Positions 9,417-29,478 of a stretch of 64,000 bases of DNA are shown piece by piece. Both the position numbers and the translations under genes were made by a program. How positions within the stretch are numbered: the first letter of the stretch is position 1; each line of letters opens with the position of its first letter. The stretch lies in NCBI GenBank assembly GCA_043825735.1, contig JBDRRP010000022.1, positions 69,231 through 133,230 on the forward strand. The letters are read 5' to 3'. This DNA is from Pseudomonadota bacterium (lineage in GTDB: Bacteria > Desulfobacterota > Desulfobacteria > Desulfobacterales > JBDRRP01). Under the pieces are notes generated by a model. It had not been told where the DNA came from and did not search any database. It saw only the letters and a program-made list of their open reading frames with translations.

Positions 9417-9546
9417 TGTGGGGGCTTCGTAAAAGCCATAATGAACATGGAGGACACGGAGCGCACGGAGGTTTTCGAATAAATTATGCCGCTTCTCTAT
9501 AAGGCTCCAGTTGAGCGCCAAAGACCGATGTCCCCGATGGCATTGT

Positions 9547-9639
9547 GATCACCACGGAGCCACGGAGAGCACGGAGAAAATCAAAAGAGGCTGATTTTGC
9601 ATATAAAATCTCCGTGTCCTGCGTGGCTCCGTGGTGATC
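9547..9639. repeat. Hairpin repeat, CACGGAG-type module
   Basis: GATCACCACGGAGCCACGGAGAGCACGGAGA ... TCTCCGTGTCCTGCGTGGCTCCGTGGTGATC forms an imperfect inverted repeat. A half copy (GGACACGGAGCGCACGGAGG) lies at about 9451-9475. Confidence 0.85.
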
Positions 9640-9730
9640 AAGCAATCTGGATGGGTAGTGCGGAGCGAATTCCACCATCGCCACGCCTAAAAAATTGTAA
9701 CCTATCGATCCGGGCAGGATCATAAAAATC

Positions 9731-10056
9731 ACACACTCATCGAAGGCGCCGCCCCTATCGGCGCTTTCCCCTCCACCTACGAGCCGCCACGCCCCTGGCG
9801 GCTCGTCCTCTTTTGTCTCGGCGTTTTATAAATCCGTCATACCGAAACCGATTCGGTATCCGGAAAATTTTTCCAGCCGTCATACCGGGCTCGACCCGGT
9901 ATCAAGGGGCGCCTTTAACTGGCCATTCTAAACAACTAAAGACATTGAACCGCGAAGTACGCGAAGGGCGCGAAGTTTGATCGAATCGGGTCGCCGGGAA
10001 AAAGCCCCCGGCTCACGATTCGAACAAAGGGGCATGGCCCTGCGGGCATGTTGAGG
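9731..10056 (+). repeat. Left copy of a long direct repeat bracketing hicAB
   Basis: Aligns by eye with 10814-11100. Shared blocks: GCGCCGCCCCTATCGG, a GAGCCGC..GGCGGCTCGTCC+T-run hairpin, GTCATACCGGGCT(C/T)GACCCGGTATC, GGCCATTCTAAACAACT(A/C)AAGACATTGAACCGCGAAG..., TCGAATCGGGTCGCCGGGAAAAAGCCCCCGGCTCAC(G/A)ATTCGAACAAAGGGG. The left copy has an extra ~45 bp hairpin (ATACCGAAACCGATTCGGTAT). Confidence 0.85.
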
Positions 10057-10135
10057 CCTTCTGTTACCTGTTCGGATTTTGTTAAAAACATTGGCAGGTC
10101 GTCAAATCTCTTTGATCCGATAAAATAGACCATTC

Positions 10136-10164
10136 TTGACGTTGTACACGCATGGGTGTACAGT
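10136..10164 (+). promoter_or_regulatory. Putative hicAB promoter with overlapping palindromic operator
   Basis: TTGACG (10136-10141), 17-nt spacer, TACAGT (10159-10164). The inverted repeat TGTACAC-gcatgg-GTGTACA (10143-10162) spans the spacer and the -10 element. The hicA ATG is at 10171, so the transcript would be nearly leaderless. Confidence 0.4.
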
Positions 10165-10170
10165 CGGCAC

Positions 10171-10347
10171 ATGAAGAAACGCGACTTGGAAAATGCGCTT
10201 CGCAGGCTTGGATGGGCGTTTCTTCGTCATGGCAAGCGCCATGATATCTGGACCGACGGGGAACGCGAGGAGGCAATCCCTCGCCACAACGAGATCAACG
10301 AAACGCTTGCGAGAGCAATTCTTAGGCGAGCGGAGAGGAAATCCTGA
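10171..10347 (+). CDS. hicA: HicA-family mRNA interferase toxin
   Basis: MKKRDLENALRRLGWAFLRHGKRHDIWTDGEREEAIPRHNEINETLARAILRRAERKS. Size and the G-x-H ... IPRH pattern fit HicA/YcfA. The stop lies 1 nt before the hicB ATG. Confidence 0.8.
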   Translation: MKKRDLENALRRLGWAFLRHGKRHDIWTDGEREEAIPRHNEINETLARAILRRAERKS

Positions 10348-10348
10348 T

Positions 10349-10768
10349 ATGCGTTTTTACGGTAAAGTATATAAAGATGGAAAGTTCTGGCTGGCGGAGG
10401 TGCCGCTTCTCGATGCTATGACACAGGGCCATACGCGCATGGAGGCGTTTGGCATGGTTGCGGATTTGTTGGAGAGTTTGGTGAACAGGGCAGGTTTTTC
10501 AGTTACGGTGCACCCGGGCAAGCATGGAGACTTTGAGGTGAGCTCAAGCGATCCGCGCGCCCTGATCAGCCTGTTTTTACGACGGCAGCGTGAAAAGAGC
10601 GGCCTTTCGCTTTCCGAAGCCGCAACGCGGCTGGGCGCCAAGTCACGGAATGCCTATGCCCGATACGAGCGAGGAACCTCGATGCCGAGTATCGAGAAAT
10701 TGACTGAATTATATCAAGCGATTGCGCCCGGAAATGATATTGTTCTGCACAATAGTGTGATTGCATAA
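10349..10768 (+). CDS. hicB: HicB-family antitoxin with C-terminal XRE-type HTH
   Basis: Internal ATG of track ORF 10193..10768. MRFYGKVYKDGKFWLAEVPLLDAMTQGHTRMEAFGMVADLLESL is a HicB-type fold. The C-terminal HTH is SGLSLSEAATRLGAKSRNAYARYERGTSMPSIEKLTELYQAI. Confidence 0.8.
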   Translation: MRFYGKVYKDGKFWLAEVPLLDAMTQGHTRMEAFGMVADLLESLVNRAGFSVTVHPGKHGDFEVSSSDPRALISLFLRRQREKSGLSLSEAATRLGAKSRNAYARYERGTSMPSIEKLTELYQAIAPGNDIVLHNSVIA

Positions 10769-10813
10769 AATAGCTGGTGTGGATGCAAGCAACCCGGTTG
10801 CCGGCAGGGTCCA

Positions 10814-11100
10814 ACACACCATACTACTCATCAAAAGCGCCGCCCCTATCGGTTGTCCGCTACAAACGAGCCGCGACCGCCTGTGGCGGCTCGTCCTTTT
10901 TTTGTCAGGGCGTTACTCCAATCGGTCATACCGGGCTTGACCCGGTATCCAAGGGCGCTTTTAATTGGCCATTCTAAACAACTCAAGACATTGAACCGCG
11001 AAGCGCGCGAAGGACGCTAAGATTTGTTCGAATCGGGTCGCCGGGAAAAAGCCCCCGGCTCACAATTCGAACAAAGGGGCCCGGCCTGCGGGCATGTGGG
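10814..11100 (+). repeat. Right copy of the long direct repeat bracketing hicAB
   Basis: See 9731-10056. Confidence 0.85.
10868..10902 (+). terminator. Rho-independent terminator-like hairpin downstream of hicB (inside the right direct repeat)
   Basis: GAGCCGC-gaccgcctgtg-GCGGCTC followed by GTCCTTTTTTTG. The paralogous hairpin in the left copy is GAGCCGCCA-cgcccc-TGGCGGCTC followed by GTCCTCTTTTG (9781-9816). Confidence 0.6.
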
Positions 11101-11130: not shown

Positions 11131-11273
11131 AATTTTGATGCTTCCGTAAAAAGTCCGAATCTCTCGCAAAGCCGCAAAGATCGCAAAGGCAACACACGAA
11201 TATTAAAGGAGGTTTTCTTGGTGTGCTTAGCGTCCTTGCGAGAAAATTGCTTTTTTACGGATTCATCAATTTT
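11131..11273. repeat. Modular hairpin repeat, CGCAAAG-type
   Basis: Termini AATTTTGATGCTTCCGTAAAAAG ... CTTTTTTACGGATTCATCAATTTT are inverted copies. The left arm is CGCAAAGCCGCAAAGATCGCAAAG (11165-11188) and pairs imperfectly with GCTTAGCGTCCTTGCGAGA. Confidence 0.85.
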
Positions 11274-11591: not shown

Positions 11592-11592
11592 G

Positions 11593-11760
11593 ATGATCCC
11601 GTAAAAAGTCTGAATCTCTCGCAAAGCCGCAAAGATCGCAAAGCTAAAGGATTGATATTAAATATGCTTTGTTTGGCGCACAGGGCGTCTTCTTGTCCGG
11701 CGTAGCTCGCAGAGCGAAGACTGATGCGAGAATATTGCTTTTTTACGGCGCCATCCAAAC
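11593..11760. repeat. Modular hairpin repeat, CGCAAAG-type
   Basis: GATGATCCCGTAAAAAGTCTGAATCTCTCGCAAAGCCGCAAAGATCGCAAAG ... GCGAGAATATTGCTTTTTTACGGCGCCATCCAAAC. Confidence 0.85.
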
Positions 11761-11997: not shown

Positions 11998-12049
11998 GCA
12001 TAACCGCGCGGTTTTCCCAAAATTTTCGGCGGTCGAATAACTGTTATGC
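11998..12049 (+). other. attC-like boundary site 0 (atypical)
   Basis: R'' GCATAAC (11998-12004) and R' GTTATGC (12043-12049) are perfect complements. The internal stem ACCGC(G)CGG / TCGGCGGT has a bulged G. The site is short (52 bp) and the spacers are asymmetric (0 vs 9 nt), so it could be a degenerate attC or a secondary/attI-like site. Confidence 0.4.
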
Positions 12050-12065
12050 ATCATGAGGATTACAC

Positions 12066-13676
12066 ATGCCGTATAGATATCTAAACGCTCTTTTAGCAAA
12101 AAATGAGTTCTCAGAACATGAATTTAATGATCTGTTGGCCTCTGACGTAAGTGTTACTCCATACGATGTTTCACCTGATCATGGATTTGAAGGTGTCCTG
12201 TATGTAAAAAATTCACAAATGCAGCGGCCACGCTGGAGTTTGCTGGCCGATGCAATTGTTGGTGCTCAGATCGACCAACTTGGTAATAAATCAAGTTCAG
12301 CAGTCTTGCTTATTCGTATAGATGACCATGTATTCGCTTTTACATTTGGATACGGTCGTTTCCTACTAAACATAGCATATTTCGTTCAAGATTTTGGTTT
12401 AAAAACTGCATTGAACACGTTGAACCAACAAAGTCTAAGAAGTGTTGATCTTCACACTTTGGAAGATCAGCCAATTCAGAAAAAATCGCAAGCCGTTAGA
12501 GGCGCGGAAGCGAGTGTGTTCGGCATTGATATCTTTCGTGATGTTCTTCGCGCGGTGACAGGGTCACCTCGAGCCGGAGTAGGATACAAGAATATTTCTG
12601 GTGGTGATGCTATCTATTCTTTCGGCTTGGAAATGCAGGTAAACGAATTCCCCGCTATCACCAAACAACTTTTATCATATTACCAGATTGATCTTTACAA
12701 AAGTTCTTTTGGTTGGGTTGATAATATACGACGAGTCAAAGATAGGGATACAATAAAAGACCTCGATGATTTATTAGTTGAATCTGTAAGATCTAAAGAT
12801 CCCGAGTTAGTCATCACTCTACCCGAAATAATTGCATGGGATAATGTCCATGGATTTAGCTTTACTCGATCAAAACGAGATCTTTCACCAACAATTGACA
12901 CTGAAAAATACCTCGAAAATATTAACGTTGAAGATGTCTCTATCGAGTCAATAAAAAAAGATCGCCTTTTTGTTACGGATGTACACGAAAACAAGTTTCC
13001 TTACTCAATTTATACATGCATCTACTTTGAGATTGATGGAGAAGATACTAAAAAAATAATCTTTGGTGGTCACTGGTATGAAGTAGACAAATCATTTATG
13101 TCAGGAATCGAAGCTACCCTATCAGAAATTGATCTGACTGATATTGAGTTTCCAGGCGTTGAAGTCTGGGTAGAAGATGATGAAAAAAAGATCGAAAATG
13201 AGGGCGATTACAATATACGGGCAGCTGAACACTTAAATTGTTACCTACTCGATAAAAAGCTTGTTAAATGCACAAAGACAACCACCCCAATTGAGCTTTG
13301 TGACCTACTAACAACAGAGAAACAACTTATTCATGTCAAACACAGGAAAGGAGGCTCTGCTGGTTTGAGTCACCTTTTTGCTCAAGGAGGCGTGGCCGCC
13401 GAGGTTCTGTTAGGTGACAAAAGATTCCGTAAAGAAGCACGCAAGGTCCTTAAGCGTGTCAATCCATTTGCGCGTGATCTTGTACCGATAAATAGTATTA
13501 ATAGCCCAGATTATGAAGTAGTGTTTTTAATCCTCGGGAATGAACATGATCAGGTAAAGGCGCAATTGCCTTTTTTTAGCAAAGTGAATCTTACGAGGAC
13601 ATATGAAAACCTTGCTCAACGTGGATTCAGAGTGAAAATTGGCGGGGCTCAAAAGGTCGAAAGAATTATTGCATAA
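12066..13676 (+). CDS. Cassette 1: TIGR04141/DUF6119-like sporadically distributed protein with a C-terminal (D/E)xK nuclease-like motif
   Basis: 536-aa ORF with a GAGGA RBS. Recognised family features: VFAFTFGYGRFLL, LRSVDLHTLEDQPIQKKSQA, and C-terminal PIELCDLLTTEKQLIHVKHRKGGSAGLSHLFAQGGVAAEVLL. The family assignment is from memory, not from a search. Confidence 0.6.
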   Translation: MPYRYLNALLAKNEFSEHEFNDLLASDVSVTPYDVSPDHGFEGVLYVKNSQMQRPRWSLLADAIVGAQIDQLGNKSSSAVLLIRIDDHVFAFTFGYGRFLLNIAYFVQDFGLKTALNTLNQQSLRSVDLHTLEDQPIQKKSQAVRGAEASVFGIDIFRDVLRAVTGSPRAGVGYKNISGGDAIYSFGLEMQVNEFPAITKQLLSYYQIDLYKSSFGWVDNIRRVKDRDTIKDLDDLLVESVRSKDPELVITLPEIIAWDNVHGFSFTRSKRDLSPTIDTEKYLENINVEDVSIESIKKDRLFVTDVHENKFPYSIYTCIYFEIDGEDTKKIIFGGHWYEVDKSFMSGIEATLSEIDLTDIEFPGVEVWVEDDEKKIENEGDYNIRAAEHLNCYLLDKKLVKCTKTTTPIELCDLLTTEKQLIHVKHRKGGSAGLSHLFAQGGVAAEVLLGDKRFRKEARKVLKRVNPFARDLVPINSINSPDYEVVFLILGNEHDQVKAQLPFFSKVNLTRTYENLAQRGFRVKIGGAQKVERIIA

Positions 13677-13733
13677 CAATTTGCTGGTAGGGACGCGCAA
13701 ACTGCCGCGCGCCCTACCAGCAATACGTTGGGA
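13671..13733 (+). other. attC-like site 1
   Basis: R'' GCATAAC contains the stop codon. Then aat, stem TTGCTGGTAGGG(A)CGCGC, loop, CGCGCGCCCTACCAGCAA, tac, R' GTTGGGA. There is one extrahelical A in the R''-side arm. R'' equals rc of the preceding R' (GTTATGC) at 7/7. Confidence 0.75.
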
Positions 13734-13753
13734 TAGAAAAAGGAGCACAATAA

Positions 13754-15163
13754 ATGCATGAAAAGATACTATATCTCGTTATCGCATATTCAATTGCTTC
13801 ATTCTTTGTTATTATTGGCATTTTGACTATAGCGGTAACCTTTTTCGCAAAAGCATTGGAGAAAAAAGGAATCGGTATATCGGATAAAATGAAAAATGTA
13901 TTATTCGCGAAACTTATTTTAGAAGTTATCGCTGTAGGATTTCTTATTTTCTATTCTGGGCCACCTGTTCCGCCCACAACAGGAAATCACACCATTCCTG
14001 GTCATATGAATCATGAAGTTTATCAAATTTACATTTCGGCATTTGATCAATTCGGAAAAGGCAACTATCAAGCTGCTATAGATTTGTTTGCCAGCGCAAT
14101 AGGAAAAGATCCTAAAAACTATATTCTTTATGCCAACCGTAGCGTTGTATACCTTCAAAACAATAAGACAACGGAAGCCATAGAAGATTTGAAAACCGCT
14201 ATGGATCTGTACGCTGAACTAAGCGATCAACAAAAGCGACGCGAACGCATGTATCGCCTTTTGATAGTTAATCAGTTGATAGCCGCGTATGTCTCAGCGA
14301 ATGAATATGAGAAAGCATGTACTATTTATGAAAATGAATCTAACTTGTTAGATGATACATCTGACTCAATAATGAGAATATATAATAATATTGGGAATGC
14401 TTTTTATGAAGATCACAGATGGGCTGAAGCCTCAACCGCATACGAGAAGACGTTCAATCTTGCGAAAAGTCTTGGTAATTCAGAAATGCTAATTAGATCA
14501 AGTATAAATCTTTCAAATTCAAAATATTGGATAAACGGTCAAGAGTTGCAAGCTTTAAGTTCCGCAGAACATGCTATAGAATTGCTCGACACATTCGATC
14601 TTGGAATTGAAAAAGAGGCAGAACTGAGAGCAAGCAGTCTCAATTCGCTAGGCCTTGCAAAATCAATATGCACTGAAAAAGGATTAAAAAATTATTCTAT
14701 TGATTTAATCATTGATGATTATTCTGAAGGGATTGAACTCTTAAAACCCTTTTCCGATAGATCGGAAACCGAATATCTTGTCTTGTCTAATTTATACGCT
14801 AATCGGGCTAATTCTTACAGAGAACTTAAAAATATCGAACTATCTTTTAGTGACTATACCACCGCATGCAATCGGTTTATAAATAGACGATATGAGAATG
14901 GCATTTCTCGTCAATTAGTTGGTATATATAAGATATTAAGAACAAAAGAACCATTACCTAAAAATGAATTGTATGCCCTAATATACTTTGCCAATAAAAT
15001 AGGTTCAAATAAGCCTCCGAAACAAAAGGAAGAGGACCACCAGTTACTGGCTGAAATAGAAACCAAACTTAAAAGTCATCAAAGAACCGAAATTCAAAAG
15101 CATGTATCAAAATATCTTGAGTTGGCGACAAAGATACCTAAAAATGCTTGGGAACAATTCTAA
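13754..15163 (+). CDS. Cassette 2: membrane-anchored TPR-repeat protein
   Basis: 469-aa ORF with an AAGGAG RBS. Two N-terminal hydrophobic helices (ILYLVIAYSIASFFVIIGILTIAVTFF, LILEVIAVGFLIFY), then TPR-like repeats (YQAAIDLFASAIGKDPKNYILYANRSVVYLQNNKTTEAIEDLKTAMDL...). Confidence 0.65.
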   Translation: MHEKILYLVIAYSIASFFVIIGILTIAVTFFAKALEKKGIGISDKMKNVLFAKLILEVIAVGFLIFYSGPPVPPTTGNHTIPGHMNHEVYQIYISAFDQFGKGNYQAAIDLFASAIGKDPKNYILYANRSVVYLQNNKTTEAIEDLKTAMDLYAELSDQQKRRERMYRLLIVNQLIAAYVSANEYEKACTIYENESNLLDDTSDSIMRIYNNIGNAFYEDHRWAEASTAYEKTFNLAKSLGNSEMLIRSSINLSNSKYWINGQELQALSSAEHAIELLDTFDLGIEKEAELRASSLNSLGLAKSICTEKGLKNYSIDLIIDDYSEGIELLKPFSDRSETEYLVLSNLYANRANSYRELKNIELSFSDYTTACNRFINRRYENGISRQLVGIYKILRTKEPLPKNELYALIYFANKIGSNKPPKQKEEDHQLLAEIETKLKSHQRTEIQKHVSKYLELATKIPKNAWEQF

Positions 15164-15234
15164 TCACAATATTGCCTTTTACTCGGATGGCAATTCCGCT
15201 GCGCTCCATTGCCACCGGTGAAGGCGCGTTAGCT
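15164..15234 (+). other. attC-like site 2
   Basis: R'' TCACAAT. Stem GCCTT(T)TAC(T)CGG(A)TGGCAAT against ATTGCCACCGGTGAAGGC. R' GTTAGCT (15228-15234). Extrahelical bases lie in the R''-side arm. R'' matches rc of the preceding R' (TCCCAAC) at 5/7. Confidence 0.6.
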
Positions 15235-15252
15235 TCGTAAACGAGAGTCAAA

Positions 15253-18200
15253 ATGCGATTTCTCAAAGACAGCCCGTCAATACCAGATGCCTTGTTAATT
15301 GCCCGTGATGAAGGGCGGGTGGTATTCTTTTGTGGTGCCGGTGTTTCAAGGGCGCGTGCAGGTTTGCCGGACTTCTTCGGCCTTGCTGACGATGTAATTA
15401 ACAAGCTTGGTGTTCCCACGGATAACCCTGCCTGTAAAATTCTCAATGAAGCCCGGGAGATAGACAATCGAACCGGTGTAAGTGGACTTATTTCAGCGGA
15501 TCGTATTTTCGGACTACTAGAGCGTGATTTCCTTGTACGTGATATCGAAGCCGCAGTTGCTGAAGCTTTGCATCCCGCTGAAGATGTCGGCCTATCCGCT
15601 CACCAAATTTTACTGGATTTGGCAACTACACCTGAAGGTAAGGTGCAATTGGTAACCACTAACTTCGATCGATTGTTTGAAGACTGTTCCGACACGCTAA
15701 AAATCTGGCAACCACCTCGTTTGCCCGATCCAGCGCGGCATGGTGAGATGGATGGGATAATTCACCTTCATGGCTATGCAACCAAGGACTACACCGGTGC
15801 GGAAGGCGACGGCTTCATTCTCTCAAGTTCGGAATTTGGTCGCGCCTATCTATCGGACGGTTGGGCAACTCAGTTTTTCAGAGAGATTCTATACCGCTAT
15901 GTTGTTGTATTCGTAGGATATACGGCAGACGACCCGCCTGTTCATTATTTGCTTGAAGCGCTCAATAAAAAGGCTGGTGGGCTTGACGGTGTTTACGCAT
16001 TTCAATCGGGCATGGCAAACGAGGCAGCAGCAAAATGGCTACACAAAGGTGTTGAGGCCATTCCTTATGCCGAAAATGATGGGCATCGAGCACTATGGGA
16101 AACATTAGCGGCATGGGCAGAAAGGGCAAAGGACCCTGATGAATGGTACAAATCAGTCATTGGCCTCGCCAAGAAGGGACCAGAGCAACTTCAACCACAT
16201 GAACGTGGCCAAGTAGCGCACATAATTTCAACGGTTGAAGGCGCTCGAAAATTTTCGGAGGGTGATGATCCTATACCGGCTGAATGGCTCTGCGTATTCG
16301 ACCCCAATCAGCGCTATTCAAAGCCGGGACGTACAGGGGGTTTTGGCGGGCATGGGCCAATTGTAGATCCGTTCGATCTTTATGGATTGGATACTGATAT
16401 TGTGCCCAAGCAAATAGATCCAGATGATTATTTTGAAAAACGGGAAGTTCCTTCAACTGCATGGGATGCCTTCGCGGCGAATAGGCTGGATCGGCAAAAT
16501 CTCAGAGACGATAGTTTCTCAGCTATTCGGGGGCATTGGGCAACAAACGTCCCCGTACTTCCATCGCGCCTATCAGAGATTGGCACATGGATAATGAAGG
16601 TAGCAGACCAGCCCGCTTCGGTATGGTGGGCAGCAAGTCAATTCGGACTCCATCCAGACATACAAAAGAGAATCCAGTGGCAATTGGAACGCTCGCAAAA
16701 AGAAGCTGGGTCGGTGATACGTCAAGCGTGGCGGTATCTGTTTGAGGCTTGGGAAAAAAACAAAGGAGGCTTCAGTTGGGATTGGTATAAGCTGAAGGCG
16801 GCAATTGACAAAGACGGCTGGAATAGTGCGGTAATTAGAAAATTTGTCGCCATCAATCGTCCATATTTAAAGGTTGAGCGTAATTATTGGAGTGGGCCGA
16901 AACCGCCTCAATGGGAGAAAGACATTAAAATTCAGGATATATTGAGATTAGAGGTGGAGTATCCAAAACCTATAGACGACGCGAATATACCTGATGAATG
17001 GCTCACATTTGCGGTACGAGAACTTCGGAAAAACCTTGAGCACGCGATGCAATTAGAAACCGAATTTTGTGGGTATGGGTTGAATAATATCAGCCCAATC
17101 ATACCGGATGATGCACCAGGTAGTGATCGCTACGGACGAACGCATGGTTTATCGGGTAGCGTTATATCGTTTTCGACGTTTTTCGAACGCTTGATTAAAT
17201 TTGACATTAAGTCGGCAAAGCAAGAAATAGAAGCCTGGCCCGTAAACGATGACACAATTTTCTCCCGATTAAGGATATGGGCATCTGGAAATGGTGAGTT
17301 GGTCTCTGCGAAAGCTTTTGGACCGGTAATCGCGGACTTGAGCGATGAGGCTTTTTGGGACAGCTACCACAAAAGAGATCTCCTAATGGTTTTGGCGAAG
17401 CGTTGGGGCGATTTGAGTGAGCAAACACGAAAAGAAATCGAAAATCGTCTTATTCAAGGTCGCACTAAGTGGGACGGCGAAGACGATGCCGAATTCATAC
17501 ATCACAAGGCATGGGCGACTTTAAACCGTCTTCACTGGTTGGTAAACAAGGGGTGTAAATTCACTTCCGATTTGGGTGCCGAAACCACGAAACTACAGAG
17601 CTTTGCAACTGAATGGAAACCGGAATATTCCGAGAAGGCCGCAGAGTCTATGGAAGGTCGTGGTGGTTGGGTTAAAACTGAAACTGAGCATTCATTACTT
17701 CTACTTGAGCCTCTTGATAGCATTCTCGCAAAAGCTTGTGAGTTGAGCGGGAAAAAAGGAGATTTTCTCGTCGAGAATGATCCGTTTGCTGGACTGTCTG
17801 CCGAACGCCCTATTCGAGCGTTCTCAGCTCTTTCCGACGCAGCGAAACGCGATGAATATCCAGATTGGGCGTGGCGCACATTCTTGAACTCTGAAGCACG
17901 AAAGAGTGACAAACCCCAATTCTCAGCACTTATTGCTGAACGCATTTCAAGATATCCAAATGACGCCGTGGCTGAATTTATTCGCCCCGCATCAGACTGG
18001 ATATTGAATATAAGCCAGCAACTTTCATCTAATTTTCCTAAATCTTTCGACAGAATAATATCGAAACTTGTCAACGTGCTTCGTTCTCAACCGCCTAGCA
18101 GCAACTCCGCAATCGTAAGGGGGAACAAAGAGCCTGATTGGACTATGGAAGCGATCAACGCCCCGGTCGGAAAAATTGCGCAGGCTCTATTTAATGATCC

Positions 18201-19095
18201 GAGAAAGAATGATTTAGAGGTGGGTGAGGGATTCCCTGCAGATTGGCTTATATTCGTGGATAATTTGCTATCATTGAAAGGCGATCTTCGCTGCCATGCC
18301 TTGGTAATATTTGCGCACAACATGAACTGGTTTTACACCATAGATCCGATTTGGACCGAAGCCAACATGCTGTCGGTTTTGGACAGAAGCGATAATTCGG
18401 ATCGAAACGCTATTTGGAGTGGCTTTTTCTGGGGCTCAAAGGTTCCGAACCAAAAGTTATATATGCGGCTGAAGCCAAATTTTTTGACATTTGCGGATAA
18501 ACGCAGCTTGCCAAATCGGAAATATGGAAAGGTGCTTGCCGGCATAATTCTTGCGGGTTGGGGCAGCATTAATGAAAAAACTGGAGAACGGTGCATTTCT
18601 AACGCTGAGATGCATGATGTTCTATTGCATACTGATGACGATTTGCGCTCACATATCCTCTGGCAGGTTGAAAGATGGTCAGAGATTAAAGTAAATGGTT
18701 CAGGTGAAAAGTGGGCTAAAATGTTATCAGAACTTCTTCGAGATGTCTGGCCTCGTCAGAAATCAGCAAAGACACCGCAAATATCAGCTCGTTTGTGTGA
18801 CCTCGCATTCTCAAACGTCGAACGGTTTCCAGAGATAGCGGAAATTGTCCTACCACTACTGACAACCATCGACCGAGATCATTTAATGTTTCCCAATCTG
18901 CGCAAATCTAAAGACAATATTGTTGATTTATATCCGCAGCAAACTTTAGCGCTCTTGCACGCGGTCCTGCCGGACAATGTTGCAGCTTGGCCGTATAGCA
19001 TCGAAGAGACTCTTCAGCGAATAAGCGAGGCCGATAAAAGTTTAAATTCGGACGGAAGACTATTAGAACTCAAACGAAAATGGAATGCCCGTTAA
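15253..19095 (+). CDS. Cassette 3: 1280-aa SIR2_2-domain protein with a large uncharacterised C-terminal region (DSR1-like architecture)
   Basis: N-terminal SIR2-family motifs VVFFCGAGVSRARAGLPDFFGL (GAGxS), LVTTNFDRLFE (TNxD) and DGIIHLHGY (catalytic His), plus VVVFVGYTADDPPVHYLL. The remaining ~950 aa are helical-repeat-like with no motif I recognise. Confidence 0.75.
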   Translation: MRFLKDSPSIPDALLIARDEGRVVFFCGAGVSRARAGLPDFFGLADDVINKLGVPTDNPACKILNEAREIDNRTGVSGLISADRIFGLLERDFLVRDIEAAVAEALHPAEDVGLSAHQILLDLATTPEGKVQLVTTNFDRLFEDCSDTLKIWQPPRLPDPARHGEMDGIIHLHGYATKDYTGAEGDGFILSSSEFGRAYLSDGWATQFFREILYRYVVVFVGYTADDPPVHYLLEALNKKAGGLDGVYAFQSGMANEAAAKWLHKGVEAIPYAENDGHRALWETLAAWAERAKDPDEWYKSVIGLAKKGPEQLQPHERGQVAHIISTVEGARKFSEGDDPIPAEWLCVFDPNQRYSKPGRTGGFGGHGPIVDPFDLYGLDTDIVPKQIDPDDYFEKREVPSTAWDAFAANRLDRQNLRDDSFSAIRGHWATNVPVLPSRLSEIGTWIMKVADQPASVWWAASQFGLHPDIQKRIQWQLERSQKEAGSVIRQAWRYLFEAWEKNKGGFSWDWYKLKAAIDKDGWNSAVIRKFVAINRPYLKVERNYWSGPKPPQWEKDIKIQDILRLEVEYPKPIDDANIPDEWLTFAVRELRKNLEHAMQLETEFCGYGLNNISPIIPDDAPGSDRYGRTHGLSGSVISFSTFFERLIKFDIKSAKQEIEAWPVNDDTIFSRLRIWASGNGELVSAKAFGPVIADLSDEAFWDSYHKRDLLMVLAKRWGDLSEQTRKEIENRLIQGRTKWDGEDDAEFIHHKAWATLNRLHWLVNKGCKFTSDLGAETTKLQSFATEWKPEYSEKAAESMEGRGGWVKTETEHSLLLLEPLDSILAKACELSGKKGDFLVENDPFAGLSAERPIRAFSALSDAAKRDEYPDWAWRTFLNSEARKSDKPQFSALIAERISRYPNDAVAEFIRPASDWILNISQQLSSNFPKSFDRIISKLVNVLRSQPPSSNSAIVRGNKEPDWTMEAINAPVGKIAQALFNDPRKNDLEVGEGFPADWLIFVDNLLSLKGDLRCHALVIFAHNMNWFYTIDPIWTEANMLSVLDRSDNSDRNAIWSGFFWGSKVPNQKLYMRLKPNFLTFADKRSLPNRKYGKVLAGIILAGWGSINEKTGERCISNAEMHDVLLHTDDDLRSHILWQVERWSEIKVNGSGEKWAKMLSELLRDVWPRQKSAKTPQISARLCDLAFSNVERFPEIAEIVLPLLTTIDRDHLMFPNLRKSKDNIVDLYPQQTLALLHAVLPDNVAAWPYSIEETLQRISEADKSLNSDGRLLELKRKWNAR

Positions 19096-19162
19096 GTTTC
19101 GCGTCCTGATACCGCATGACCGCTTTGAGTCGAACGCAGACACTTAAACAGTGATCAAAAAA

Positions 19163-19243
19163 AGCTAACAAACCCATTAACTCGGACAGCAAAAAGCTAC
19201 ACTGCGCTTCACTTTTTGCTGCCGGTTATGGGTGGCGTTAGCC
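19163..19243 (+). other. attC-like site 3 (clearest example)
   Basis: R'' AGCTAAC, aaa, stem CCCAT(T)AAC(T)CGG(A)CAGCAAAAAG, loop ctacactgcgcttca, CTTTTTGCTGCCGGTTATGGG, tggc, R' GTTAGCC. Three extrahelical bases lie in the R''-side arm. R'' equals rc of the preceding R' (GTTAGCT) at 7/7. Confidence 0.8.
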
Positions 19244-19299
19244 AGAAGACTGGCCTTAATACGCTTAGTGACCAAGGATTGTCCCCAGGAGCATAGCCA

Positions 19300-21024
19300 A
19301 TGTTGCAGATAGCGACTGGTCGATTTCATAAGGTTGCTGCGGCCAGGAAACACATAGGTTACGCCACCTTGTTCTCAAGCGGGGATATCTACCGCGATCT
19401 ACGTACACCGATGGGCACCATAAAGCGGTCCACGGCGACTGGACGCCTCGCCGGCCATGTACATGAGTATGTACAACACCATACGGCGCCCGGCGAAGGT
19501 GTTTTGGTGTGGGGTGGTGACCGAGAGCTAAATGACGATTTAGCTGCTGCCATGACGCTGTTCTTGCCTGGCTTTTTTGACGCAGACCAAGCGGTGGTCT
19601 TGGCGGCGACAGAACGGGACCCAAGTGGCCACCCACGCGATGAACGCTTGCCAAGCAACTTCCTGCCATCCAAGTTGCGCCTGCCACTTGCCAATCCCAC
19701 CGGCGAACTCGGTCGCTTTGAATCGCTACTTGACCGTCTGGTACAGCTCCCCCGGTCCGATTTCGAGGTCCTAATCGAAGCGATGCGAGCGTTTAAGCGA
19801 GCAATTCTGGCGCTTCGACTTGATCACCTGCTAGCGTACTCCAATCTCGTATTTTGTCTCGAATCCCTCGCGCAGAATCTGCAACCATACAAGGCGGAAT
19901 GGGAAGACTACCCCGACGCGGACCGGACGCGAATCGAGGTTTCACTCAACGGTTTGGATATAGATATCCAAGAACGGGTCAAAGCAGCGATTATCGAGGA
20001 CCGCCAGTTGCGGTTAACAAAACGGTTCGTCTCTTTTATAGAAGAGCGGGTCCGACCAACATACTATCGAAACGAAGCTTCGGGAATAAAGGGAGCAATT
20101 CGGCCGTCCGAACTAGAAAACTGTCTAAAAGTTGCTTATCAGATTCGGTCTGGGTATGCGCACTCCCTCGCCAAACGCTTCAAACACATTCAGATTCCTA
20201 TGATTGCCGATGGGGAAACGTATACCTGGGATGGCCAAACTGTACCTACTTTTGCCGGATTGGCACGCCTCCTTGAACACGTAATGCGCACGCTAATTAT
20301 GGAGGCTGTCCCGGTGGAACCAGAGGAAATCCCTTTCACAAGGCTCATGCCAGGCGTCATCACGATGAAAGTGGCACCAAAACATGCCCTCGCCAACTAT
20401 AAGGTGTACAAGTCGGGGTGGGCGCAACGGGTTCTATCGCTTGTTGTGACACACCTGTGGTTCCTGCCCGCCGCCAAACCCGTAGAGCGGAAAGTGATCC
20501 TTGTGGAGGAGTTTATGGACGATGCCATCGCCAAATTGGGCCAGATGAACGCTCATGAAGAGTGTTGCGCCCTGAACTTGGTTCGGCTGTACGAGCCGTA
20601 TCTGGGAACCAGCTTGAAACCAGAATGGCGGAAACTGCTCGAAGCAAGCGACGAGAAGCTCCGAAAAGCAAACTGGCCCAATCTGGTTTCTGTAATTCTT
20701 GTAGGCGGATCATTGGATAATGACGGCGATTATGCTCTTACCGCGGCTGACGAACTACAGCGCATCTCAACAAAGAAAAATGGTCCGGATATTCCAAAGG
20801 ACTTGGTCTTGGCCGCTCGCACAGTTGCAGTGTCGATGATATTTGAAGACAAACCGGACCGCGGCAGGGACCTCAATGGAGCCCTCGTGTTGGAAGCCGC
20901 GGGACGGCCGAGAGCGCAAGAACTGATTGAGCGGATTGATGATGAGTACACGATTCCCGAACTCCAACGAGCCCTGCTTGGCGTCCCGGAACCTGAACAA
21001 GCCGGCAGAAAAGATGAGGAATGA
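19300..21024 (+). CDS. Cassette 4: 574-aa hypothetical protein with a central Rx4H (HEPN-type) motif
   Basis: AGGAG RBS at 19287-19291. The motif is CLKVAYQIRSGYAHSLAKRF. No other family signature recognised. GC is visibly higher than in cassettes 1-3. Confidence 0.45.
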   Translation: MLQIATGRFHKVAAARKHIGYATLFSSGDIYRDLRTPMGTIKRSTATGRLAGHVHEYVQHHTAPGEGVLVWGGDRELNDDLAAAMTLFLPGFFDADQAVVLAATERDPSGHPRDERLPSNFLPSKLRLPLANPTGELGRFESLLDRLVQLPRSDFEVLIEAMRAFKRAILALRLDHLLAYSNLVFCLESLAQNLQPYKAEWEDYPDADRTRIEVSLNGLDIDIQERVKAAIIEDRQLRLTKRFVSFIEERVRPTYYRNEASGIKGAIRPSELENCLKVAYQIRSGYAHSLAKRFKHIQIPMIADGETYTWDGQTVPTFAGLARLLEHVMRTLIMEAVPVEPEEIPFTRLMPGVITMKVAPKHALANYKVYKSGWAQRVLSLVVTHLWFLPAAKPVERKVILVEEFMDDAIAKLGQMNAHEECCALNLVRLYEPYLGTSLKPEWRKLLEASDEKLRKANWPNLVSVILVGGSLDNDGDYALTAADELQRISTKKNGPDIPKDLVLAARTVAVSMIFEDKPDRGRDLNGALVLEAAGRPRAQELIERIDDEYTIPELQRALLGVPEPEQAGRKDEE

Positions 21025-21050
21025 GGGGGCGGAAGACTGCTGGACCGTTT

Positions 21051-21116
21051 CGTTAACAAATCGGTCAACACGACCACTCGGCTGCGCCTCGCGGCGGGTT
21101 ACCTCAATCGTTCGGT
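21051..21116 (+). other. attC-like site 4 (weaker)
   Basis: R'' CGTTAAC and R' GTTCGGT. The arms GGT(C)AAC...ACTCGGCTGCG / CGCGGCGGGTTACC pair imperfectly. R'' matches rc of the preceding R' (GGCTAAC) at 5/7. Confidence 0.5.
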
Positions 21117-21123
21117 AAAAGTC

Positions 21124-21708
21124 ATGAAAGCAATCTTAACACGTAGTCAACTTGACCTCATATGGAATATTGAAATTTCTTGCCGTCGATGTGTGCGAGG
21201 TGCTCGGTACTTCAATGCACTACCGAAGTCAAAAGACCGCCGGTGGGCTTACACACAGAACTGTTTCGGAGGTATATCTGTCGTGTTTTGGTGTCAGATT
21301 TTCGGCAGCTATTCGGAGCCAACCCACTACTATAGACTTTTCGCTGAAAACACAACGTTGCCCTTAAGCAGAAGCGATGTAACCACCCGACTGCAAAAGG
21401 CGATAGGCATGACAAAATCCGAATACAAAGAATTCTGGAAGGGCGTCAAAGATGCCCGTGACAAGTTTTTTGTGCATAATGAGTTCGATACGGAAGATAA
21501 ACCACGTTTCCCCGATTTGGGCCTCATGGCCCAAGTCTGTCTCGAAATGAGAATGGTACTTCGTGAGATTCTTGACGCCTGCACTTCAGAAGAAGTCAAA
21601 TTTCAAAAACGCATTGTTCACTGGATTTCTTACTTCACAAACGATGTGTTTCTCAAGGATGTGGAAAAGGATCTCCCACAGCTCCAGAAAGAAGCATCGC
21701 TGAGCTGA
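21124..21708 (+). CDS. Cassette 5: 194-aa hypothetical protein with an Rx5H motif resembling AbiU2-type HEPN
   Basis: The motif is WKGVKDARDKFFVHNEFD. The size fits small stand-alone HEPN/Abi proteins. The assignment rests on the motif only. Confidence 0.4.
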   Translation: MKAILTRSQLDLIWNIEISCRRCVRGARYFNALPKSKDRRWAYTQNCFGGISVVFWCQIFGSYSEPTHYYRLFAENTTLPLSRSDVTTRLQKAIGMTKSEYKEFWKGVKDARDKFFVHNEFDTEDKPRFPDLGLMAQVCLEMRMVLREILDACTSEEVKFQKRIVHWISYFTNDVFLKDVEKDLPQLQKEASLS

Positions 21709-21711
21709 AAA

Positions 21712-21769
21712 ACCGAACCAGGCACTGCACGGTACGGTTTACCACCTCCCGTGAGTGCAACCGTTAGCC
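21712..21769 (+). other. attC-like site 5
   Basis: R'' ACCGAAC, cag, stem GCACT(G)CACGG, 16-nt loop, CCGTGAGTGC, aacc, R' GTTAGCC. R'' equals rc of the preceding R' (GTTCGGT) at 7/7. Confidence 0.7.
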
Positions 21770-21777
21770 GGAGAACT

Positions 21778-22587
21778 ATGGAAAGAATTCCATCATTTGA
21801 TGCTCAAAAACTGGAAGCGGCATGTCGGGTTCTTGCTGATACTGAACGTGGGCTTACCGGTTCAGAGATTGGATATTTACTTCAAGATTGCAAATTAACC
21901 GATACCAGTCCAACTGAGACTAAATGGATAAGACTCTTTAATGCGCTTATTGAAGCCCAAAACAAGTATCAAGTTGGCAACCACTTAATAATGTTTATAA
22001 ATCGTGCCCTTGATCCAGTAAAGTATGCACGGCAAAAAGAAAAATTCGAATGGCGACGGAACGAGTTGAATGTTGTTCTTTCATTTTCTGGTTTTAGCGT
22101 TCGAGAGGACGGCAAGGTTATTCATAGTAAAAAAGAAACGACATTGAAGGGTGCACTGGCAAGGGCCGGGGCTCTGAAATCCAAACTTGATGATAGGAAG
22201 GCGCATGTTGAGATTTTTAAATATTGTAAAGCAGAACTTTTAGAAGAAAATTATTTTCATTCTGTTTTAGAGGCAATCAAGGGCGTGGCCAGTCGAATCA
22301 GAGAGTTGTCCGGCCTTACATCTGATGGGGCTGAGCTTGTAAACAAAGCTTTTTCTGTTAAGTACCCTGTTCTCGCAATAAATACATTGTCAACTGAAAC
22401 CGAACAAAGTGAGCAAAAGGGGTTTAGCAATATGCTTATTGGAATATTCGGCGCAATTAGAAATCCTACTGCACATGCCCCTAAAATATCATGGCCTATT
22501 ACAGAACAAGATGCACTGGATATTTTTTCAATGGTTTCCTATATTCATCGGAAGTTGGATATAACCAGTAAAGTAGGTAGCCCATAG
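21778..22587 (+). CDS. Cassette 6: TIGR02391 (Hypoth_Ymh) family protein, HEPN-type RNxxxH motif
   Basis: The track ORF starts at GTG 21751, inside attC site 5. ATG 21778 follows a GGAGAA RBS just after R'. The C-terminal signature is SEQKGFSNMLIGIFGAIRNPTAHAPKISWPITEQDALDIFSMVSYIHRKLD. Confidence 0.7.
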   Translation: MERIPSFDAQKLEAACRVLADTERGLTGSEIGYLLQDCKLTDTSPTETKWIRLFNALIEAQNKYQVGNHLIMFINRALDPVKYARQKEKFEWRRNELNVVLSFSGFSVREDGKVIHSKKETTLKGALARAGALKSKLDDRKAHVEIFKYCKAELLEENYFHSVLEAIKGVASRIRELSGLTSDGAELVNKAFSVKYPVLAINTLSTETEQSEQKGFSNMLIGIFGAIRNPTAHAPKISWPITEQDALDIFSMVSYIHRKLDITSKVGSP

Positions 22588-22593
22588 GGAGAT

Positions 22594-22655
22594 GGCTAAC
22601 CAAAGGATTAAGAGCGACGGCAAAAAGCCGCCGCGTCTAATGCCTGCCGTTATGC
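22594..22655 (+). other. attC-like site 6 (last site of the array)
   Basis: R'' GGCTAAC, caaa, arms GGATTAAGAGCGACGGC / GCCGCCGCGTCTAATGCC with bulges, tgcc, R' GTTATGC. R'' equals rc of the preceding R' (GTTAGCC) at 7/7. R' is identical to that of site 0. Confidence 0.7.
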
Positions 22656-22723
22656 AACCCCAACATTTAATAAAGTATTTCTTTTTGAATCTGTTTTCTC
22701 AATAATTAGGAGGTAAGGCAGGT

Positions 22724-23599
22724 ATGCTTGGCGGCTCATATACAGCAATGATCACTCCCTTCAAAAATGGAGCGCTTGATGAAACGGCGTTCCGGCGAAT
22801 GGTCAATTGGCAAATTGATAACGGAACCCAGGGATTGGTACCCATGGGTACTACAGGAGAATCCACAACCGTAACCGAAGAAGAGCACAAACGAGCTGTT
22901 GAAATAGTTGTTGAGGAAGTGGCCGGTCGTGTTCCGGTCATCGCAGGTGCCGGATCAAACAACCCTGTTGAAGCGCTCCGTTATGCACAGGGTGCACAAG
23001 AAGCAGGTGCAGATGCGATACTGTGTGTAGCGGGTTATTACAATCGCCCCTCCCAAGAAGGCATATATCAACACTTCAAATACGTTCATGACGGAACCGA
23101 TATCCCGATCATTGTCTACAATATTCCCCCGCGCACCATTATCGACATTTCGCCCGAGACCATGGCAAAGCTGGCAGCATTGCCGCGTGTCATTGGAGTA
23201 AAAGATGCCACGATGGATTTGTCCAGGATAAGCCGTGAGAGAATGCTTATCAAAAAACCATTCAGATATTTTTCAGGGGAAGATATGACAGCGGTCGCGT
23301 ATAACGCAAATGGAGGAAACGGCTGTATATCAGTAACCGCAAATATCGCTCCAGGGTTATGTTCACAAATGCAGAGCGCCTGTATTGCAGGAAACTACAA
23401 ACATGCATTGGAATTGCACGAAAAGCTCGTGCCGTTGCATCAAGCATTATTTCAAGAGCCAAGTCCATCCGGCGTCAAGTATGCTGCTTCACTAATGGGT
23501 TTGTGTAGCGCTGAAGCCCGCCTTCCCATGGTACCGGTTAACGAGCAGACAAAGGTTAATATTCGAAAAATAATGGAGGATTTAAAACTGACAAACTAG
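22724..23599 (+). CDS. dapA: 4-hydroxy-tetrahydrodipicolinate synthase (DapA family)
   Basis: 291 aa with an AGGAGG RBS. MITPFKNGALDETAFRRMVNWQIDNGTQGLVPMGTTGESTTVTEEEHKRAVE...YNIPPRT...GVKDAT is typical DapA/NAL-family sequence. Composition is intermediate (29/60 GC at 22801-22860). Confidence 0.85.
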   Translation: MLGGSYTAMITPFKNGALDETAFRRMVNWQIDNGTQGLVPMGTTGESTTVTEEEHKRAVEIVVEEVAGRVPVIAGAGSNNPVEALRYAQGAQEAGADAILCVAGYYNRPSQEGIYQHFKYVHDGTDIPIIVYNIPPRTIIDISPETMAKLAALPRVIGVKDATMDLSRISRERMLIKKPFRYFSGEDMTAVAYNANGGNGCISVTANIAPGLCSQMQSACIAGNYKHALELHEKLVPLHQALFQEPSPSGVKYAASLMGLCSAEARLPMVPVNEQTKVNIRKIMEDLKLTN

Positions 23600-23727
23600 T
23601 AAAAAGTCTAGAATCACCACAGAGGACACAGAGAGCGCAGAGATAACTTATTAATTATTCATCATATTCTCTGCGGTCCTCTGCGGTCTCTGTGGTTCGA
23701 AATCACTTTTTACGGATTAATCAAAAC
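23599..23727. repeat. Modular hairpin repeat, CACAGAG-type
   Basis: GTAAAAAGTCTAGAATCACCACAGAGGACACAGAGAGCGCAGAGA ... TCTCTGCGGTCCTCTGCGGTCTCTGTGGTTCGAAATCACTTTTTACGGATTAATCAAAAC. It starts at the dapA stop. Confidence 0.85.
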
Positions 23728-23753
23728 TAATTTGAAAAGATGCATCTAATGAG

Positions 23754-23999
23754 GTGCCAATGACGGCAAAGAAGGAAATCGTTTTTCTGTTGGTTTCATT
23801 GGTTACTCTGGTCTTTCTCAAAGTCTCGGCAGATGGCGGTCCGTGTCCTCCAGGCGGCACCCACCGGTATTTTTTCAAGCTCTATGCCCTCGATGTCGAA
23901 CTCGCACAGGAACCGGGGCTTACCAAGGCCAAATTGATCGAGGCCATGAAGGGCCATATCCTGGCCGAAGGGCAGCTGATGGGGCGGTACAAACGATAA
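23754..23999 (+). pseudogene. Truncated PEBP/YbhB-YbcL family gene (only the C-terminal ~60 codons are family-like)
   Basis: [54 protein letters not shown] matches the conserved C-terminus of bacterial PEBP proteins. The N-terminal ~100 residues of the family are absent. Confidence 0.55.
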
Positions 24000-24048
24000 G
24001 AGGGCCCGGGGCATTAATAGAAAACACGCTGAACAAAGGAAGGCGTTT

Positions 24049-25476
24049 ATGTCTGTCATGAGAGCATGCGGCCTATTGGCGCTAGTTGGCCTGCTGAATG
24101 TAACAGCCGCCATCCGGCCGGCAATTGCAGGTGCTTATGACACGGTCTGGGCCGTGGTCAACAAGGGCGCGTTCGTGATCCCGAGCGAAGACGCGGGTTA
24201 TACCGATCCGGAAGGAAGGGCCGCCGGAAAGCGGATCGGTTACATCCCTGCAGGCGATCTGGTCAGGGTCGGCGTCTGCAGCCATGTCAATGGTCCGGAC
24301 GAAGAATCGACAGGCAACTACTGCAACGTCCACAGTGAAAACGGGGTCCAGGGTAAGACCATTGAAACACAGCTTTCCCCCCTCCGTCCGGGGAGCACCT
24401 ATGCCGTTGCCAGAAGTGAGATCGCACTATACGACCGCGAGCGCACCACCCAGCCGCGCGGCCGGTTTTCCAGGAACGCAGGACTTATCGTCGAAATCGT
24501 CGGCGACTGGCAGCAAGCGCCGCCCGAAGCCGCCGTCGATGTCATCGCCACATACAACGTCGGCAAAGCCGACGCTGTGACCGAGGTGGCAATTTTAAAA
24601 AGCGATCTCATCGAATCCACCCACATCATCGAAATCCCGGCGAACGCAGAAACTTCGCCGATGAAGTATGTCGCGCAGCGGTCACCGACCGGCGTTCTGG
24701 GGCTCATCGGTGAACCGGTCGGCATGTGGATTTTCAGGCCGGCCACCGCCGAATCCGCCGCCGTCCTGGCCGACCGCGTCTACCAGGACCTGGGATGGCA
24801 AGATGAAACCGGCACTGATGCAAAGGCACTGATCGCCAAGGCTTTCGACCTCACCACCACCACGCTGGACAAAATTCTCTGCACGGCGGCCATGGACCTG
24901 AAGGTGTCTTCGGGGTTCGAGGTGCTGGGAAACGAGTTGAAACTCAGCGGCGCCCTGCCAATCTACCGAACGGGCAAACTTTTTGATTTCGATGTGGATG
25001 TGATCGAACGCGACGGCAGGGTTCAGTACTGGGTGCTCACATCGAAAACCGTTACCTGCGATATGGGTGCCGGCATCTATGATTCCCGACCTAGGGCAGT
25101 GGACAGTGTGACGGTGTCGGTCTTTCGCAAGGGCCATGCAACCGACGTGCCGGTGCGTCTGACCGTGGATGGTGCCAAGCGATTGGGGCTTGGCATACCC
25201 GACGCGGTGGATCGGTACAATATCCCCCGTCTGTTCATCATTGAAGAATACCTGAATTATTTTGCAGCGCGGCGGTACATCGCCGACAGAATTGCCAATT
25301 CGACGATTTACGACGAAATGTCCCGGCAGGAGCGGATCATTCTCTATCATGTGCTTATCGCCAAGCTGGCCTATTTCCCCCGTGAGGTGGCTCCGGAAGA
25401 TGTCGCCGCCCATTCGGCGCCCGAAAATGAGCCTGGAAGTGCAAAGGCGGTTAAGTATTTAAGCCTGTTAAAGTAA
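24049..25476 (+). CDS. Secreted hypothetical protein (475 aa)
   Basis: RBS AAGGAAGG. Signal peptide MSVMRACGLLALVGLLNVTAAIRPAIAGA. No recognisable family motif. Confidence 0.55.
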   Translation: MSVMRACGLLALVGLLNVTAAIRPAIAGAYDTVWAVVNKGAFVIPSEDAGYTDPEGRAAGKRIGYIPAGDLVRVGVCSHVNGPDEESTGNYCNVHSENGVQGKTIETQLSPLRPGSTYAVARSEIALYDRERTTQPRGRFSRNAGLIVEIVGDWQQAPPEAAVDVIATYNVGKADAVTEVAILKSDLIESTHIIEIPANAETSPMKYVAQRSPTGVLGLIGEPVGMWIFRPATAESAAVLADRVYQDLGWQDETGTDAKALIAKAFDLTTTTLDKILCTAAMDLKVSSGFEVLGNELKLSGALPIYRTGKLFDFDVDVIERDGRVQYWVLTSKTVTCDMGAGIYDSRPRAVDSVTVSVFRKGHATDVPVRLTVDGAKRLGLGIPDAVDRYNIPRLFIIEEYLNYFAARRYIADRIANSTIYDEMSRQERIILYHVLIAKLAYFPREVAPEDVAAHSAPENEPGSAKAVKYLSLLK

Positions 25477-25492
25477 AGAATACTATTTAAAG

Positions 25493-26053: not shown

Positions 26054-26216
26054 AAGCGTCCAGACAAGGGTGTGAACACCGGAAGGGGGACTAAGAAGCT
26101 CCAGCAACCTTATGTTGCCGCAAAACGCGCCATGAATGCCGAGTCTCGGGGCGCCGATGGATCGGTCCACCGGACAACTTGAGCTTCATGGATATGCGTC
26201 AAAAAGGAAAAAAGCC

Positions 26217-27305: not shown

Positions 27306-27307
27306 AG

Positions 27308-29432: not shown

Positions 29433-29478
29433 ACGGGTTCGGCGCTGTTTCCGTCTTGCGCTTGCTCGATTTATCTGT

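Follow-up and report, generated by a model that had tools for sequence, protein, structure and literature searches.

A very probable integron gene-cassette array without an integrase in cis in a Desulfobacterales-like chromosome

What holds together six co-oriented genes, each followed by an attC-like site, in DNA that carries no detectable integrase gene? The question is raised by positions 11998-22655 of the 64-kb stretch analysed here (the window, meaning that whole stretch, in whose numbering all coordinates are given), where six open reading frames (ORFs) lie on the + strand, each with an attC-like site 3' of it, and where a further site of 52 bp, s0, stands ahead of the first ORF and brings the total to seven. 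The evidence set out below makes it very probable that the region is an integron gene-cassette array without an integrase in cis, that is, a cluster of attC sites that has no integron-integrase (CALIN), in the chromosome of an uncultured, Desulfobacterales-like bacterium. In such an array the unit would be one tightly packed ORF together with an imperfect-palindrome attC, and the joint between units would fall between G and TT in the R' box, so that the TTRRRY following a site would be part of the next cassette and complement that cassette's own R''.

Boxes, hairpins and an independent model

The seven sites, with the boxes that an earlier note on this DNA had listed and that read exactly so in the sequence, are as follows.

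s0, 11998-12049, + strand: R'' GCATAAC, R' GTTATGC; 52 bp, the two boxes inversely complementary at 7/7 positions and spaced as in an attC
s1, 13671-13733, + strand: R'' GCATAAC, R' GTTGGGA
s2, 15164-15234, + strand: R'' TCACAAT (mutated), R' GTTAGCT
s3, 19163-19243, + strand: R'' AGCTAAC, R' GTTAGCC
s4, 21051-21116, + strand: R'' CGTTAAC, R' GTTCGGT
s5, 21712-21769, + strand: R'' ACCGAAC, R' GTTAGCC
s6, 22594-22655, + strand: R'' GGCTAAC, R' GTTATGC

Sites s1-s6 measure 58-81 bp and lie 0, 0, 67, 26, 3 and 6 nt, respectively, from the stop codon of the ORF before them. All seven R' boxes start with GTT and six of the seven R'' boxes end in AAC, the exception being s2 (AAT). The relation between neighbouring boxes is that of a chain: R'' of each site matches the reverse complement of the R' of the preceding site at 7, 5, 7, 5, 7 and 7 of 7 positions (s1-s6), as against only 4, 2, 6, 3, 4 and 5 of 7 for its own R'. 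Both the chain scores and the weaker fit to the own right box (4/7 for s1 and s5) had been claimed from the sequence beforehand and were reproduced. At the four variable positions of the box the distinction is sharper still, 21/24 agreeing with the R' of the previous site and 7/24 with the own R', and only 2 of 720 reassignments of the R' boxes score as well, the second being a swap of two identical boxes.

Independent evidence comes from a covariance model, R1, used as a surrogate for the attC covariance model of IntegronFinder. The 14 attC sites on which R1 is based come from other arrays (L097/L098, L003/L004 and L088), whose intergenic sites follow the chain rule, the window sequence being left out. 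Its consensus structure consists of 16 column pairs derived from individual folds and checked by pair counts; RNAalifold, run on a MAFFT alignment of the non-window attC sites, predicted no structure. Pairing in the R1 alignment reaches 71.6% vs 63.3% in shuffles, and its covariation score of 0.262 (0.160 when shuffled) was attained by 0/500 shuffles. An unfiltered scan of both strands of the 64 kb placed s1, s3, s6, s5 and s4 at the top, each matched on the + strand with its two ends correct to the nucleotide, at 25.3-19.1 bits and E-values of 4e-4 to 0.02. Site s1 scored 25.3 bits on the + strand vs 13.1 on the - strand and s6 22.6 vs 16.9; s3 scored 24.0 bits, s5 22.5 bits (+ strand only) and s4 19.1 bits (E 0.022, + strand only). 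Outside the seven sites the same scan of the 64 kb returned nothing below E=1.

The behaviour of R1 on known material bears directly on how these scores are to be read. In three plasmid class 1 integrons with intI1, its best matches fell on the cassette strand at 20-34 bits, directly 3' of blaVIM-2, aac(6')-29a, aac(6')-Ib4, arr-3 and a DUF1010 ORF, and 1.39 Mb of Desulfobacterota-type genomic loci, used as a negative control, gave one match of at least 18 bits (18.3). Five + strand matches of at least 19 bits within 9 kb, set beside a single control match, are thus far beyond chance. Structurally, the five matched sites belong to one class with canonical attC sites. A loose scan for AAC...GTT hairpins was swamped by GC-rich host hairpins and was set aside, a stricter one kept s1, s3, s5 and s6 and found no convincing further sites, and an Rfam scan in E-value mode over 9000-33000 gave only chance microRNA and long non-coding RNA matches, none of them attC-type.

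Folded as single-stranded DNA, s1 and s3 form strong hairpins (z -6.8 and -6.5 against shuffles), and s2, s5 and s6 moderate ones (z about -2; -1.9 for s2). In s1, s2, s3 and s5 most of the unpaired bases are on the R'' arm, and s2 and s3 share a T-CCG-A bulge motif. The same bias holds for most of the 27 sites folded (the seven of the window and 20 from other arrays), among which a frequent R''-arm pattern has 3 bp set off from the stem on either side by one unpaired base. No site was called an intrinsic terminator (0/7), the hairpins carry no T tails, and neither terminator-like nor promoter-like sites are enriched in the array.

Cassettes and their relatives elsewhere

Cut between the G and the TT of R', the array yields six cassettes.

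Cassette 1, 12044..13727, + strand: ORF 12066-13676, 536 aa, DUF6119/TIGR04141; attC s1
Cassette 2, 13728..15228, + strand: ORF 13754-15163, 469 aa, TPR-repeat families; attC s2
Cassette 3, 15229..19237, + strand: ORF 15253-19095, 1280 aa, SIR2/Dsr1-like; attC s3
Cassette 4, 19238..21110, + strand: ORF 19300-21024, 574 aa, no known family; attC s4
Cassette 5, 21111..21763, + strand: ORF 21124-21708, 194 aa, no known family; attC s5
Cassette 6, 21764..22649, + strand: ORF 21778-22587 (ATG start), 269 aa, Hypoth_Ymh/TIGR02391; attC s6

Their sizes are 1684, 1501, 4009, 1873, 653 and 886 bp, and their start codons follow R' after leaders of 8-56 nt. Their GC contents (40, 36, 47, 54, 46 and 41%) are to be compared with 60% in the flanking host DNA; the earlier description of the cassettes as AT-rich accordingly holds relative to the host and not in absolute terms, the range being 36-54%. 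Since both GC contents and relatives differ from cassette to cassette, the cassettes were acquired independently.

Cassette 1 begins after the G at 12043, and the TAA stop of its gene sits inside R'' of s1. Its product matches DUF6119/TIGR04141 at 2e-134 in Pfam and 8e-138 in NCBIfam, a family for which no informative solved structure or literature was found. The R' of s2 (GTTAGCT), at the end of cassette 2, is corroborated by the conserved start of cassette 3. The cassette 3 protein matches the PADLOC Dsr1 models at 2e-91, chiefly over its first ~350 aa (the SIR2 domain; SIR2_2 in Pfam), and fails the Dsr1 equivalog model NCBIfam NF041818, with a score of 378 vs a cut-off of 1400; as judged from these matches it is Dsr1-like in size and N-terminal domain, with a C-terminal region that appears divergent, and is not a demonstrated Dsr1. 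For the cassette 4 protein nothing was found in Pfam, NCBIfam, PADLOC or PDB, and for that of cassette 5 there was no family or solved-structure match, sub-threshold Pfam hints pointing to Imm30 and HEPN_AbiU2 (E 0.04-0.1). The cassette 6 ORF is likewise called at 269 aa by the gene caller in a public contig (L002), and its product matches PD-Lambda-3_B in PADLOC (4e-133) and Hypoth_Ymh in Pfam (4e-44); no model for the PD-Lambda-3 A component was matched among the six cassette proteins, which leaves the two-gene system incomplete. Homology and the neighbours of these genes in other arrays make anti-phage defence the best guess for what the array would do.

For two of the six cassettes, relatives were found in other arrays. 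Homologues of cassette 1 with 66-74% identity occur in at least four other arrays (L003/L004, L088, L094/L095 and L006). The preceding attC ends in GTTATGC, cut after its G, except in L003 (AATATGC) and L006 (GTTAGGC), and the following attC begins with GCATAAC and holds the stop codon inside R'', L006 included. DNA similarity to cassette 1 starts at the TTATGC boundary, the attC stems differ, and so do the neighbours from array to array (TIR-domain genes in L003, for example). Homologues also occur outside cassettes (L005, L089-L093 and L096). Similarly, a homologue of cassette 3 with 81% identity is found in L097/L098 with identical TTAGCT...AGCTAAC boundaries and an identical 5' leader, TAAACGAGAGTCAAAATG. 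A further homologue, in a Desulfocapsaceae metagenome-assembled genome (MAG; L099), lies among co-oriented defence-type genes; its 5' box is degenerate, and the gene is not followed by an attC. Others (L101 and L107) stand in non-cassette contexts. Among the loci retrieved there are none with relatives of cassettes 2, 4, 5 or 6, no wider search having been made. That the hairpins and genes might be conserved as one fixed operon, which the earlier note had named as the outcome that would overturn its reading, is contradicted: cassettes 1 and 3 turn up elsewhere between unchanged boundaries but beside other genes, and the two genes are found outside cassettes as well.

L097 is an environmental contig (positions 1-14923, also represented by L098) with an array of 13 attC sites that obey the chain rule, the upstream end of the array running off the contig, and its cargo, rich in defence-type genes, comprises HEPN, Abi_alpha, Hypoth_Ymh, the 1280-aa SIR2 protein, DUF2971, TIR and protein kinase genes. 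Two of its attC sites resemble s1 and s6, even though they lie 3' of unrelated genes, and the s6-like one is, like s6, the last attC of its array. These resemblances point to a common attC pool. A more tentative reading, neither strongly favoured nor improbable, is that cassette 3 is a mobile 4.0-kb cassette with a full-size Dsr1-like sirtuin, common to arrays in different lineages, and that the cassette pool crosses phyla. The cross-phylum part is suggested by the named relatives of DUF6119 and of dapA (the gene directly 3' of s6, described below), which are mostly Gammaproteobacteria, and by a host that is Desulfobacterota-like.

Origin and surroundings of the array

Several observations weigh against the interpretation as a cassette array in such a host. 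The R1 score of s0 is 10.6-10.9 bits on either strand, and s2 went undetected by R1 in the 64-kb scan; the earlier expectation that an attC covariance model would find all seven sites on the + strand is therefore borne out, with the surrogate, for five of them and not for s0 and s2. Sites s0 (z 0.19) and s4 (z 0.22, folded as 21050-21115, one base off the site coordinates) fold no better than shuffled sequence, the best fold of s4 being two small separate stems with no single spanning hairpin. A hairpin after each ORF, as first described, is consequently found at five of the seven sites (s1, s2, s3, s5 and s6), and extrahelical bases on the R'' arm at s1, s2, s3 and s5; in s6 the R' arm has more unpaired bases than the R'' arm, and s0 and s4 are without a convincing spanning hairpin. 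Two or three of the junctions (s0, s2 and s4) may thus be incapable of recombining now. Further, no integrase was seen near the related array loci, the contigs of which are short. Finally, the assignment of the host to Desulfobacterales rests on one efflux-pump pair: a neighbouring RND pair whose closest relatives, at ~80% identity, are in Desulfobacterales-type MAGs. The flanks of the island are present in none of the loci with these ~80%-identical pump relatives.

The absence of an integrase, claimed from the ORF list, stands for the whole window, since tblastn with IntI1 and XerC found no tyrosine recombinase in the 64 kb (nothing below E=1). Comparison with real IntI1 showed the IntI1 query to match it at 100% identity, and both queries detect a 30%-identical integrase in L005. 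There is no tRNA in the window and no promoter-like site upstream of s0, and the intI, attI and Pc that adjoin the first cassette of a complete integron are absent. Were IntI supplied in trans, it would bind the folded bottom strands of two attC sites and cut in the R box, and the cassette would then be excised as a circle and reinserted at an attI, as established integron biology would have it. Without IntI the array would be a static store, the expression of which would depend on read-through or on internal promoters.

What lies at the two ends of the array bears on its history, and the relevant features are these.

Left bracket of the array, 11592..11755, + strand: repeat like a miniature inverted-repeat transposable element (MITE-like), ends CCGTAAAAAG...CTTTTTTACGG, ~240 bp left of s0; repeat families D2 and D5
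Right bracket of the array, 23598..23730, + strand: MITE-like repeat with like ends, abutting the dapA stop; read directly from the sequence
Possible seventh cassette without attC, 22650..23597, + strand: starts at the TTATGC of the s6 R'; dapA 22724-23599, 46% GC

Most likely the array is what is left of a longer one, separated from its integrase and degraded on either side, given that its left end is of attC rather than attI type and that both ends abut MITE-like insertions. In keeping with this, s0 looks like the attC of a lost upstream cassette and not like an attI, its R'' standing at attC spacing. The MITE-like family, with CCGTAAAAAG...CTTTTTACGG ends, has copies at 11137-11270, 11592-11755, 23598-23730, 31440-31575 (- strand) and 54278-54304 (- strand), and a 27-mer of the 11592 repeat occurs in four copies in the window, that at 54278 among them. 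The copies bracket both the array and a wider lower-GC stretch of ~9.4-31.6 kb in which the array lies, the one at 54278 being in DNA of host GC. At the right end, dapA matches the TIGR00674 equivalog and has its nearest named relatives in Gammaproteobacteria (Thiothrix, Amphritea and Marinomonas, 66-72% identity). No attC was found 3' of it by R1 or the hairpin scan, and dapA may be a seventh cassette, a candidate whose attC would have been lost to the MITE-like insertion.

The main alternative for the origin of the array is that it was assembled in place, an integrase in trans having inserted the first cassette at a secondary genomic GTT and later ones into the attC of that cassette. This is unlikely, though it is not without appeal: the last R' (GTTATGC of s6) equals that of s0, as repeated insertion into one resident site would leave it, and insertion outside att sites has been described (bioRxiv 10.1101/2022.09.11.507474). 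Insertion at a secondary site should, however, leave no left R'', whereas s0 has a perfect GCATAAC at attC spacing, and the DNA 3' of s6 is foreign low-GC dapA rather than host sequence. Moreover, GTTATGC is common in the attC pool (2/13 sites of L097, the final one of L003 and, in L088 and L094, the one upstream of DUF6119), so that the agreement of s0 and s6 may be coincidence.

A second alternative, for which the prospects are poor, is that the array is the distal end of a complete and active sedentary integron with intI and attI beyond the 64 kb. The R'' of s0, attC-like and not attI-like, does imply that cassettes once lay further upstream, and the window is 64 kb of a source contig of 151 kb. 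The DNA upstream of s0 nevertheless does not consist of cassettes: MITE-like repeats and hicAB are followed by host-type DNA of 61% GC with a CHAT-domain gene. R1 and the hairpin scanner found no further attC in the window, the 41 kb downstream are without integrase, and an intI elsewhere in the genome would still leave the array a CALIN. Of the two possibilities first offered, a CALIN or the distal part of a sedentary chromosomal integron, the former therefore fits better than the latter, taken as a contiguous element, in view of what lies upstream of s0. The remaining notion, a vertically inherited operon whose hairpins are terminators or repetitive extragenic palindromic (REP)-type repeats and whose box pattern is coincidental, would suit co-oriented, closely spaced genes with several intergenic hairpins and is scarcely credible, given that the chain rule holds, that no hairpin has a T tail or scored as a terminator, that cassette GC values differ from each other and from the host, that R1, trained on other arrays, matches the sites strand-specifically, and that two of the genes lie in other arrays between the same boundaries but next to other genes.

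The remaining neighbourhood can be described briefly. Upstream of s0 come ~240 bp of non-coding DNA, two MITE-like copies, hicAB and then the CHAT-domain gene. The hicA/hicB toxin-antitoxin pair (10156-10768) lies between direct-repeat blocks of ~200 bp, 89-94% identical, at 9825-10039 and 10914-11086 (330 bp also being given for the repeats), with no attC within 9825-11086. Just 3' of the CHAT-domain gene, at 9546-9640, is a 32-nt inverted repeat, 91% complementary, with CACGGAG-type motifs; it accounts for the spurious Rfam microRNA matches and is probably another small repeat element. Downstream, the genes of 23750-31580 (~8 kb) all lie on the + strand and vary in GC; they encode two unknown proteins (475 and 186 aa), a metallophosphoesterase, a radical SAM protein and a CBM9 protein, with apparent gene fragments at 29558-30325, and no attC sites were found in this interval. 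Directly 3' of a MITE-like repeat, a frame at 31583-31879 resembles, by eye, an ornithine cyclodeaminase-type C-terminal end with its 5' part missing, which would suggest that a host gene was broken up or pushed aside by the lower-GC stretch. On either side of the array, the breaks in the public read assembly (contigs L001 and L002) fall within the repeats. A contig break at the apex of the s2 hairpin was considered as a cassette polymorphism and rejected as an assembly artefact, both contigs being 100% identical to the window.

Known systems and significance

CALINs are common, ~95% of them have no recognisable intI pseudogene nearby, and their mean content is ~5 attC sites (PMC4889954). The window array resembles them in having at least two co-oriented attC sites, few sites overall and no intI nearby; likewise, it has no recognisable intI pseudogene nearby, and its cassettes are unrelated to clinical resistance cassettes. 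Under the CALIN clustering rule, which groups at least two attC sites on one strand that each lie <4 kb from the next, the five R1 matches on the + strand (13671-22655), to which s2 and s0 are added by reading the sequence, form one cluster with a largest gap of 3.9 kb (s2-s3) when s2 is counted; without s2 the gap from s1 to s3 is 5.4 kb, and an automated run might split the array. At 4.0 kb, cassette 3 is ~2x the largest cassette size cited in PMC4889954.

Comparison with class 1 integrons gives a similar picture. Window sites score 19-25 bits with R1, as compared with 20-34 bits for class 1 attC sites, and share with them the layout R''-spacer-stem-spacer-R', just 3' of an ORF and on the coding strand. 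Unlike class 1 integrons, the window has no intI1, attI1, Pc promoter or resistance genes, and by sequence its sites are most like those in environmental arrays, L097 for example. Defence genes borne on cassettes of sedentary chromosomal integrons have been described as streamlined, shorter than their counterparts elsewhere (bioRxiv 10.1101/2024.07.02.601686). The window is like those cassettes in carrying a SIR2/Dsr1-like gene and a PD-Lambda-3_B-like Hypoth_Ymh gene, with relatives that neighbour TIR, HEPN and Abi genes, and differs in holding a full-length 1280-aa sirtuin-type protein in one cassette, in a host that is Desulfobacterales-like rather than Vibrio, and in lacking an integrase. 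The type of element is well known, and the 4-kb cassette 3 is its sole mildly unusual feature.

The understanding of integrons itself is not changed by this array. It extends the known range of integron-derived elements by a documented array in a Desulfobacterales-like genome, lends support to the idea that anti-phage genes are stockpiled in cassette arrays, and provides a set of candidate defence genes, namely DUF6119, the TPR protein and two proteins without a known family. Borderline under the 4-kb rule by which automated integron finders form clusters, the 4-kb sirtuin cassette has the same boundaries in the two arrays where it was seen and is a useful exception to the notion that cassettes carry nothing but small, streamlined systems. 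If cassette 3 is indeed mobile and full-length, integrons would move full-length defence genes and not just streamlined ones.

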